Virus record (IMG/VR): IMGVR_UViG_2558860161_000008
Span: 1-43,817 of that record
DNA length: 43,817 nt
Source of the DNA: a virus
Taxonomy: Duplodnaviria > Heunggongvirae > Uroviricota > Caudoviricetes
Strand: one strand, 5' to 3'
This document shows, piece by piece, positions 32,375-32,672 of this stretch. The notes beneath the pieces were generated by a model. It made no database searches and was not told the origin of the DNA. It worked only from the letters and a program-made list of their open reading frames with translations. Numbering within the stretch: the stretch's first letter is position 1; every line of letters begins with the position of its first letter. The position numbers and the translations under genes are program-made.

Positions 32375-32623
32375 ATGAATGAAAAAGTTTTTGGAGCAAA
32401 AGCCATTTAGACTCCAAAGGTTTTTGCGCTTGTTTACCTGGTAATTGGCATTTTCCTCGTTTTTTCTGTTGTCTCAATGAATTTCACGGCGATTACGATA
32501 TCGGTGGTAAGTGCATTGCTTTTACGTGTGCTTTATGAGTTCCTAATGAACTCATTCAAGGCGACTGAGCATCTTTACAGGATCGCCGAATCTCTTGACC
32601 GTAATGGATCCAGCGATAAATAG
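32375..32623 (+). other. Moron: small two-TM membrane-protein reading frame interrupted by an in-frame amber codon
   Basis: Strong RBS AGGAAG 5 nt before ATG 32375; 11 codons, TAG at 32408-32410, then 71 further in-frame codons encoding two hydrophobic helices to TAG 32621-32623. Confidence 0.35.
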
Positions 32624-32646
32624 ATAAGTCATTTCAGTGCATATGT

Positions 32647-32672
32647 AAACCGCCGACATGGCGGTTTTTTTA
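32647..32672 (+). terminator. Rho-independent terminator after the moron
   Basis: ACCGCC-gacat-GGCGGT hairpin followed by TTTTTTTATTT. Confidence 0.55.

Follow-up and report, generated by a model that had tools for sequence, protein, structure and literature searches.

The 43,817-nucleotide stretch analysed here (the window; IMG/VR virus record IMGVR_UViG_2558860161_000008, positions 1 to 43,817) is a lambdoid prophage with a Mu-like contractile tail module, and within its tail operon a spacer of about 340 bp separates the stop codon of the tape-measure gene from the start of a DNA_circ_N gene (gpN below). This spacer holds a small accessory gene of the moron type whose reading frame is interrupted by an amber codon (Table 1). 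A sequence-only reading of the window had described a strong ribosome-binding site, an ATG with 11 codons, a TAG, and then 71 in-frame codons with two hydrophobic helices, and all of these are found at 32363–32623; an internal 48-residue open reading frame (ORF) starting at ATG 32477 and lacking a Shine-Dalgarno sequence is also present as described. This ATG is the first ATG, GTG or TTG downstream of the amber codon, the sequence preceding it (TTTTTTCTGTTGTCTCA) is pyrimidine-rich, and gene callers predict the 48-residue ORF on amber contigs (P0011); as far as can be read from the DNA, it would be the sole sizeable product possible without readthrough. An open frame of 71 codons is expected by chance in about 1.3% of cases at the local base composition, and we count the locus as a gene because its homologues settle the question. 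No gene is annotated in the spacer by the Prokaryotic Genome Annotation Pipeline (PGAP) in the amber-allele genomes checked, so that a conserved small-protein gene has been passed over in every one of them.

Table 1. Coordinates of the features of the window, with the gene and its surroundings first and the wider prophage last
Feature	Position	Strand	Remarks
Shine-Dalgarno sequence AAGGAAG	32363–32369	+	5 nt 5′ of ATG 32375 and 9 nt 5′ of overlapping ATG 32379
Gene start and first stop	32375–32410	+	ATG 32375, 11 codons (MNEKVFGAKAI), then TAG at 32408–32410
In-frame continuation	32411–32623	+	71 sense codons and TAG stop 32621–32623; transmembrane helices 1 and 2, conserved C-terminal helix
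Overlapping +1-frame ORF	32379–32444	+	From the second ATG; 21 codons, MKKFLEQKPFRLQRFLRLFTW followed by a stop
T5 run	32421–32425	+	T6 in Enterobacter and some metagenome alleles
Internal 48-residue ORF	32477–32623	+	Met35 to end; no Shine-Dalgarno sequence
Exchangeable cassette	32162–32645	+	Alternative last ~60 tape-measure codons (~180 bp) plus the small membrane-protein gene; absent or replaced in empty-site sister prophages
Sigma-70 promoter-like site	32273–32301	+	ATGATA-17 nt-TATAAT, 10/12 matches; inside the cassette-specific tape-measure 3′ end
8-bp direct repeat GTCATTTC	32352–32359 and 32628–32635	+	276-bp spacing; brackets the ORF
Intrinsic terminator	32647–32671	+	GC-rich hairpin AAACCGCC-GACAT-GGCGGTTT and T-run; backbone feature
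Tape-measure gene	30415–32343	+	ORF, 642 residues; directly 5′ of the moron gene; stop 32341–32343
DNA_circ_N gene	32684–34090	+	Mu gpN-like, DNA circularisation/baseplate; same frame as the moron ORF
Sheath gene	28116–29618		Followed by tube and chaperone genes
CI-like repressor gene	6498–7151	−	
Q antiterminator gene	13448–14206		
Lysozyme gene	16148–16687		Window's own lysis region
Integrase gene	41218–42315		

Intact homologues and the origin of the amber codon

Searches with the conceptual readthrough product as query recovered proteins of 82 residues with 91–96% identity (96% for P0001) from Enterobacter roggenkampii, Enterobacter asburiae and draft genomes of E. coli, and further homologues of 79–83 residues at 51–73% identity, including one from Citrobacter. 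The intact homologues examined all occupy a single slot, in the order tape measure, gene, DNA_circ_N, in prophages of Enterobacter, E. coli and Citrobacter, and Edwardsiella phage GF-2 has a 33%-identical copy directly after its tape-measure/lytic tail protein gene. Relatives are found in only three records among 50,697 deposited phage genomes, two for GF-2 and one for Klebsiella phage Kp4864-1, and a megablast search of the region against deposited phage genomes gave no match.

The sequence-only reading had proposed that homologues be inspected for a sense codon at 32408–32410, and they have one. In the alignment, position 12 is a tryptophan in the close relatives and a leucine in the Citrobacter member, and the wider family has isoleucine or leucine there, within the motif L-I-T-P-K. 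At the DNA level the close intact alleles have TGG at codon 12, a single base different from the window (A32409G), and in one metagenome contig (L139) this is the only difference across the whole 341-bp spacer. An intact orthologue in the same slot therefore departs from the window by a point change at the stop. The downstream frame is retained in the homologues, and between subfamilies the proportion of differing synonymous sites (pS) is about 0.8, which is saturation, compared with about 0.28 for nonsynonymous sites (pN), indicating purifying selection on the protein. We consider it very probable that the spacer contains a real moron gene for an 82-residue inner-membrane hairpin protein, and that a one-base change of the Trp-12 codon from TGG to TAG has made the window's copy a null or strongly hypomorphic nonsense allele.

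The sequence-only reading had also implied a gene designed to depend on suppression, which finds no support: the stop is a one-base nonsense allele and is not conserved, and neither a tRNA gene nor a structural signal accompanies it in the window. Position 12 is variously Trp (TGG), Tyr (in a derived allele), Leu or Ile across the family, which is not the pattern of a conserved readthrough stop. Folding of the RNA from 32355 to 32445 is no better than that of shuffled sequences (z = 0.40), and no Rfam element lies around the amber codon. An inverted repeat that brackets the TAG (32383–32396 and 32412–32425) was considered as a recoding signal and rejected, since it folds no better than shuffles; bypassing in the style of T4 gene 60, from Ile11 (AUU) to a downstream AUU, was rejected because it would delete the invariant TPK motif, and is further disfavoured by the ancestral allele being simply TGG. 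A phage-encoded suppressor tRNA was rejected as well, since the window has no tRNA gene and the 92-nt tRNA-Ile(GAT) carried by a related prophage (L133, described below) lies in an early region that the two do not have in common. A supE-type suppressor allele is matched by 158 genomes; the 60 matches listed seem to be laboratory strains or derived from such strains, and no moron carriers are among them. We note also that the moron's own stop at 32621, likewise a TAG, shares the gpN frame and that no further stop precedes the gpN start, so that efficient amber suppression would extend the protein into gpN too. Nothing in the sequence appears to favour either leaky readthrough or the use of Met35. 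The amber codon is an ordinary though widespread nonsense allele and not a designed suppressor-dependent gene; nonsense alleles of prophage accessory genes are commonplace and imply no new mechanism, and the finding adds a new, unannotated example to two known kinds, morons and nonsense alleles.

Spread of the amber allele and later changes on it

We counted alleles with DNA-based scans that are independent of ORF calling; the samples may overlap, and the pattern used for the metagenomes and GTDB needed exact flanks of codon 12 and so favours the window haplotype. The gene is present in 22 complete E. coli genomes, 21 of which have the TAG with no rescuing change and one of which has TAT, with neither TGG nor a TAG accompanied by a sixth T in the T5 run (TAG+T6). 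Among 24 close loci in IMG/VR there are 19 with unrescued TAG, three with TAT, one with TAG+T6 and one with TGG, and the 16 metagenome contigs comprise 14 unrescued TAG alleles, no TAT, and a single example each of TAG+T6 and TGG. The only GTDB species representative recovered, the type strain of Citrobacter youngae (CCUG 30791), has the unrescued TAG and exactly the window haplotype. Enterobacter assemblies often have the intact TGG form, with P0001 entered under 70 index blocks. The amber cassette is found on at least five tape-measure mosaic backgrounds. From its presence in many genomes and on these mosaic backgrounds, we conclude that the amber allele is established, spread alongside a phage lineage that is active and recombining, and is neither a clone-specific blip nor an error. 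That the stop could be a sequencing or assembly artefact, or the frame a spurious ORF in a non-coding spacer, might draw on the lack of any PGAP annotation in amber-allele genomes, but the identical TAG occurs in 21 independently assembled complete genomes and in many contigs of other origin, and the intact homologues are under purifying selection; this explanation is already refuted and has a negligible chance of being correct.

The gpN genes of the E. coli amber loci differ from each other at only 0–5 bases per 1377, and the cassette is thus too young for the intactness of its downstream frame to discriminate between readings. A near-identical cassette in divergent tape-measure backgrounds might be taken for a selective sweep, an idea that we rejected because the differences are blocky mosaics and not a uniform divergence. 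Comparison of the tape-measure gene (30900–32300) with five relatives (L002, L003, L020, L037, L040) shows such a patchwork, with sharply bounded divergent blocks at, for example, 31800–32050 and 32000–32290.

Could the amber codon itself be the adaptive state, a leaky stop under selection in which a low level of UAG readthrough supplies a tolerable dose of a potentially toxic protein? Most copies in E. coli, IMG/VR and the metagenomes are amber, the allele crosses genera and tape-measure mosaics with the downstream frame intact in nearly all copies, and in-frame stops with later reversals are reported to be common in bacteria (PMC7918605). However, the close relatives have TGG and the family does not conserve the stop, the window offers neither a stimulatory structure nor a suppressor tRNA, the youth of the cassette deprives its intactness of meaning, and the rescue alleles described below suggest that the amber codon is suboptimal in at least some hosts. 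We regard selection for a leaky stop as unlikely.

Seven changes are seen on the amber haplotype. Two of them reopen the frame. The first is G32410T, which converts the TAG to TAT (Tyr) and is found in NCTC9040, where PGAP annotates an 82-residue coding sequence, and in three IMG/VR loci. The second is an additional T in the run at 32421–32425, which joins the +1-frame ORF that starts at ATG 32379 to the main frame and so bypasses the TAG; its product (P0006) has 81 residues, with a new basic N-terminus in place of the N-terminal 15 residues and the same two helices, and this allele occurs in Enterobacter cloacae and on other contigs. The remaining changes are T32454A (F27Y), present at many loci and with Tyr27 found also in the intact E. 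asburiae allele P0005; T32454G (F27C), in L055 and L143; T32621C, which converts the second stop to Gln; A32371G, between the Shine-Dalgarno sequence and the start; and A32564T (T64S), at a nearly invariant position. Base 32454 has therefore been altered in two ways on the amber background, for which recurrent mutation, sequential change or recombination are possible explanations. In the IMG/VR variant with T32621C (L054), the TAG-to-CAG change would join the open frame to gpN. As a separate matter, a database protein (P0008) has an internally frameshifted middle segment and the RefSeq DNA of NCTC9040 (L032) is one base off the window spacer; the two probably derive from different assembly versions.

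The frame can be reopened by 8 of 1023 possible substitutions and by 102 of 1264 possible single-base indels, and, with six substitutions and one indel observed, the chance that each class would include one frame-reopening change is P ~0.004, a rough figure that assumes a uniform mutation model. These two independent frame restorations suggest to us, if only modestly, that recovery of the protein is favoured in some lineages or hosts. The persistence of in-frame stops, followed by reversal, has been described as a general phenomenon of bacterial genes (Belinky et al. 2021, PMC7918605), and the amber allele resembles those cases in persisting with an intact downstream frame that later changes reopen; it differs in that one of the rescues leaves the stop codon as it is and works by a +1 slip in a T-run, through which an overlapping, out-of-frame ATG is recruited.

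These restorations bear on two further readings of the amber allele. One holds that its functional product is the 48-residue fragment from Met35 to Lys82, made from ATG 32477 and perhaps by reinitiation after short upstream ORFs. Such a fragment would keep the second transmembrane helix and the best-conserved part of the family (LRVLYEFLMxSFKATEHLYRIAE, the conserved C-terminal helix), the 21-codon +1-frame ORF ends at 32444, 32 nt before ATG 32477, and gene callers predict it (P0011). But no Shine-Dalgarno sequence precedes ATG 32477, Met35 is not conserved in distant homologues, the first transmembrane helix would be lost together with the invariant TPK/Tyr21 motif, and the rescue alleles restore the full protein with both transmembrane helices and not just the fragment; we find this reading very unlikely. 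The other is that expression of a membrane protein that bars phage DNA entry is switched reversibly by the amber codon in concert with the overlapping ATG and the T5 run. On that reading the exclusion protein would be costly and the TAG would shut down its production wholly or to a trace, slippage between T5 and T6 or a change of TAG to a sense codon would turn it on under phage pressure, and the amber allele would be maintained and not merely tolerated. We think this distinctly improbable. Under the reading that we prefer, a nonsense allele of a real gene, the series of natural alleles (TGG, TAG, TAT, TAG+T6 and empty sites) would ease functional testing.

The protein family and its place in tail operons

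Kyte-Doolittle analysis shows two hydrophobic segments, at approximately residues 16–34 and 37–57, followed by a charged tail, and an AlphaFold2 model of an intact homologue is a helical hairpin (helices 3–34 and 37–76) with a mean predicted local distance difference test score of 81. The predicted topology is one of two transmembrane helices joined by a short periplasmic turn, with both ends in the cytoplasm. Four intact homologues match PHROG 12129 nearly end to end, over profile positions 2–77/78 of 79 and with E values from 3e-11 to 6e-13; this PHROG family has no functional annotation. There is a weaker similarity to DUF4282 (PF14110), a family of uncharacterised small integral membrane proteins: at 22.7 bits (E = 1.6e-4) the readthrough product of the window falls short of the 27-bit gathering threshold, weak matches are found in 15 of 17 close members, and the best of the close members reaches E = 6.6e-6. 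The window's subfamily is unlike DUF4282 in remaining below this threshold. However, distant relatives found by profile search in IMG/VR loci pass it with 42.2 and 37.9 bits, so that the link of the window's subfamily to DUF4282 is a transitive one. Only 24 relatives turned up when 1.84 billion representative proteins were searched with a profile.

The layout of the protein, which is small, with two transmembrane helices and conserved N- and C-terminal motifs, is that of DUF4282. The two have in common an N-terminal F-x-F..h-I-T-P-K-I..Y motif, the pair of transmembrane helices, and a C-terminal R..FE...FK..E.L.RI motif after them, and the distant IMG/VR relatives have the sequence FGFDKLITPKI...FKNNEYLRRIAE. 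Alignment shows residues T13, P14, Y21, R51, E55, F61, K62, E65, L67, R69 and I70 to be invariant or nearly so. By these profile matches and motifs, we assign the moron protein to PHROG 12129 as a putative divergent branch of DUF4282. A fold search of BFVD gave generic helical hairpins only, none at E ≤ 0.001, a PDB profile search with the family found nothing, PADLOC and NCBIfam have no meaningful matches to the protein, and the literature that we searched for DUF4282 contained no mention of it.

Distant members of the family in IMG/VR loci show where such genes can lie. Eight loci have the gene directly downstream of a tape-measure gene and upstream of a Dit-like gene; in about 35 the order is a baseplate hub gp41-like gene, a gene for a small protein of secreted appearance, the family member and a Gp138_N spike gene; three loci have it upstream of a small terminase gene, and one upstream of a J-like fibre gene. 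These several positions point to a mobile accessory gene that strongly favours the tail-tip portion of tail operons without being bound to any one neighbour. Recurrence of the family at the tape-measure/hub junction in three tail architectures makes it a candidate injection-interfering or tail-related membrane factor. In the group of about 35 similar loci, as in L089 (5609–6243), the gene is part of a two-gene island with a protein of 111–136 residues that has a signal-peptide-like N-terminus. In another locus (L057/L082, 3344–3928; IMG/VR 2630968742_000007) an extra ORF of 194 residues separates the small membrane-protein gene from the tape-measure gene; the small gene has a GTG start and a leucine at position 12.

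The predicted topology, small and with two transmembrane helices and a charged C-terminus, also resembles that of class II holins, and one protein labelled 'holin' is among the non-significant fold matches (rank 41, E = 2.4). A holin-like or lysis-timing accessory role, in place of that of a host-protective moron product, is nonetheless highly improbable: the gene belongs to the tail/baseplate operon in every tail type looked at and not to a lysis cassette, the window contains a separate lysis region that includes a lysozyme gene, the small gene has no in-frame dual start, and there is no significant similarity to holin families in Pfam or PHROGs.

The cassette, its expression and a possible role

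The tail genes that flank the spacer are present in 33 complete E. coli genomes, and 22 of these have the moron gene. In the four genomes without it that we inspected (OW1E2, ECCWS199, AW1.7 and ES8), a 68-bp spacer replaces the 340-bp spacer. The gene is thus present or absent between near-identical and otherwise colinear prophages, as expected of a moron, and the region also has the base composition of one, with a GC content of 0.375–0.435 across 32200–32700 against 0.50–0.56 in the flanking tail genes. Both observations bear out the proposal of the sequence-only reading that the tail operon holds an accessory gene of the moron type, but its description of a 340-bp AT-rich insert holds for the composition and not for the size, as the truly extra DNA is approximately 276 bp and the cassette includes about 180 bp of the tape-measure 3′ end. 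OW1E2 is identical to the window as far as about 32161, beyond which it has the sequence of the empty site, and identity resumes at the terminator; from this we take the exchanged unit to be approximately 32162–32645. The 8-bp direct repeat that brackets the ORF, of which the empty site has a single GTCATT, was considered as a target-site duplication or insertion scar and rejected, as about one such repeat is expected by chance per 400 bp. The ES8-type sister phages have a tape measure of 602 residues with an SLT transglycosylase domain.

The terminator had been taken as part of the moron, and although the hairpin is there, the sister prophages with empty sites retain the same one. It is thus a backbone feature that lies outside the insert, and the moron does not have a terminator of its own. 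We note that an equivalent terminator is present between the tape-measure gene and gpN in L004–L007 even without a moron, and that gpN starts only about 13–16 nt past the T-run. The position of a terminator inside the tail operon, together with the Q antiterminator gene, suggests that the late operon depends on antitermination at 32647–32671.

In lambdoid phages, late transcription antiterminated by Q passes terminators, and as the window encodes a Q antiterminator its late transcription should pass this one. During lytic growth, the moron would be transcribed with the tail genes by Q-antiterminated polymerase that runs through the backbone terminator. In a lysogen, expression would come only from a cassette-borne promoter, with the transcript ending at the terminator. 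The promoter-like site at 32273–32301 is a candidate for this role by a bare match to the consensus; sigma-70-like sites are no more numerous in the region than in shuffled sequences, and the site lies in coding sequence, within which it is conserved in the moron-bearing relatives. In a non-suppressing host, ribosomes that initiate at the strong Shine-Dalgarno sequence and ATG would stop after 11 codons, and the amber allele would therefore be null or, at best, weakly hypomorphic. What little product remained would arise from rare near-cognate readthrough, or from weak initiation at Met35 to give a 48-residue fragment with the second transmembrane helix and the tail.

As to what the intact protein does, the natural functional analogy is gp15 of HK97, which blocks incoming phage DNA at the inner membrane. 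According to the account in PMC3594210 of the work of Cumby et al. 2012, gp15 is a YebO-like superinfection-exclusion protein of the inner membrane, is encoded beside the tape-measure gene, and acts in a manner that depends on features of the incoming tail. The moron resembles it in being a gene for a small inner-membrane protein in a tail operon, adjoining the tape-measure gene and followed by a terminator. The likeness is one of analogy only: gp15 has 62 residues, a single hydrophobic segment and a gene upstream of the tape measure, whereas the moron protein has two transmembrane helices and its gene lies downstream, and no homology was detectable with gp15, the sole characterised case from a tail operon that was compared (hhalign probability 0.65%, with five aligned columns). 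By this analogy our best guess, a tentative one, is that the protein lets the prophage bar phage DNA from entering at the inner membrane.

Several points weigh against the view of the amber allele as a null form of an exclusion gene whose loss is tolerated and sometimes repaired. The stop-loss change T32621C and the T64S substitution look like relaxed constraint with no maintenance of the protein, and the youth of the cassette makes the lack of further decay uninformative either way. The high frequency of the amber allele, in three genera, could mean that it is favoured and not just tolerated, and a leaky UAG could still yield a low but functional dose. An exclusion function has neither a PADLOC or NCBIfam match nor homology to HK97 gp15 to point to, and the promoter call is a consensus match and nothing further.

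Elsewhere in the tail operon, the tape-measure gene sits between a tail assembly chaperone gene and gpN, whose start as annotated by PGAP is the ATG equivalent to 32687, and gp44–48-like baseplate genes come after gpN. The window's 642-residue tape-measure product has no Pfam match, and its 642-residue counterparts in relatives have a faint match to PhageMin_Tail.

The best local match to the window is a prophage in NZ_AP021894.1 (L133). The structural module at 17595–38263 is common to both with 99.6% identity, and the early region and ends of the window (1–17594 and 38264–43817) are unlike those of this prophage. In the early region of the window, Rfam identifies isrK (8413–8489, 63.7 bits) and C4 antisense RNA (8514–8601, 82.8 bits) in tandem, inside or beside an Ash/Rha-domain ORF at 8053–9201. 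The segment at 8413–8601 looks like an antisense-controlled antirepressor module of the P1/P7 type.

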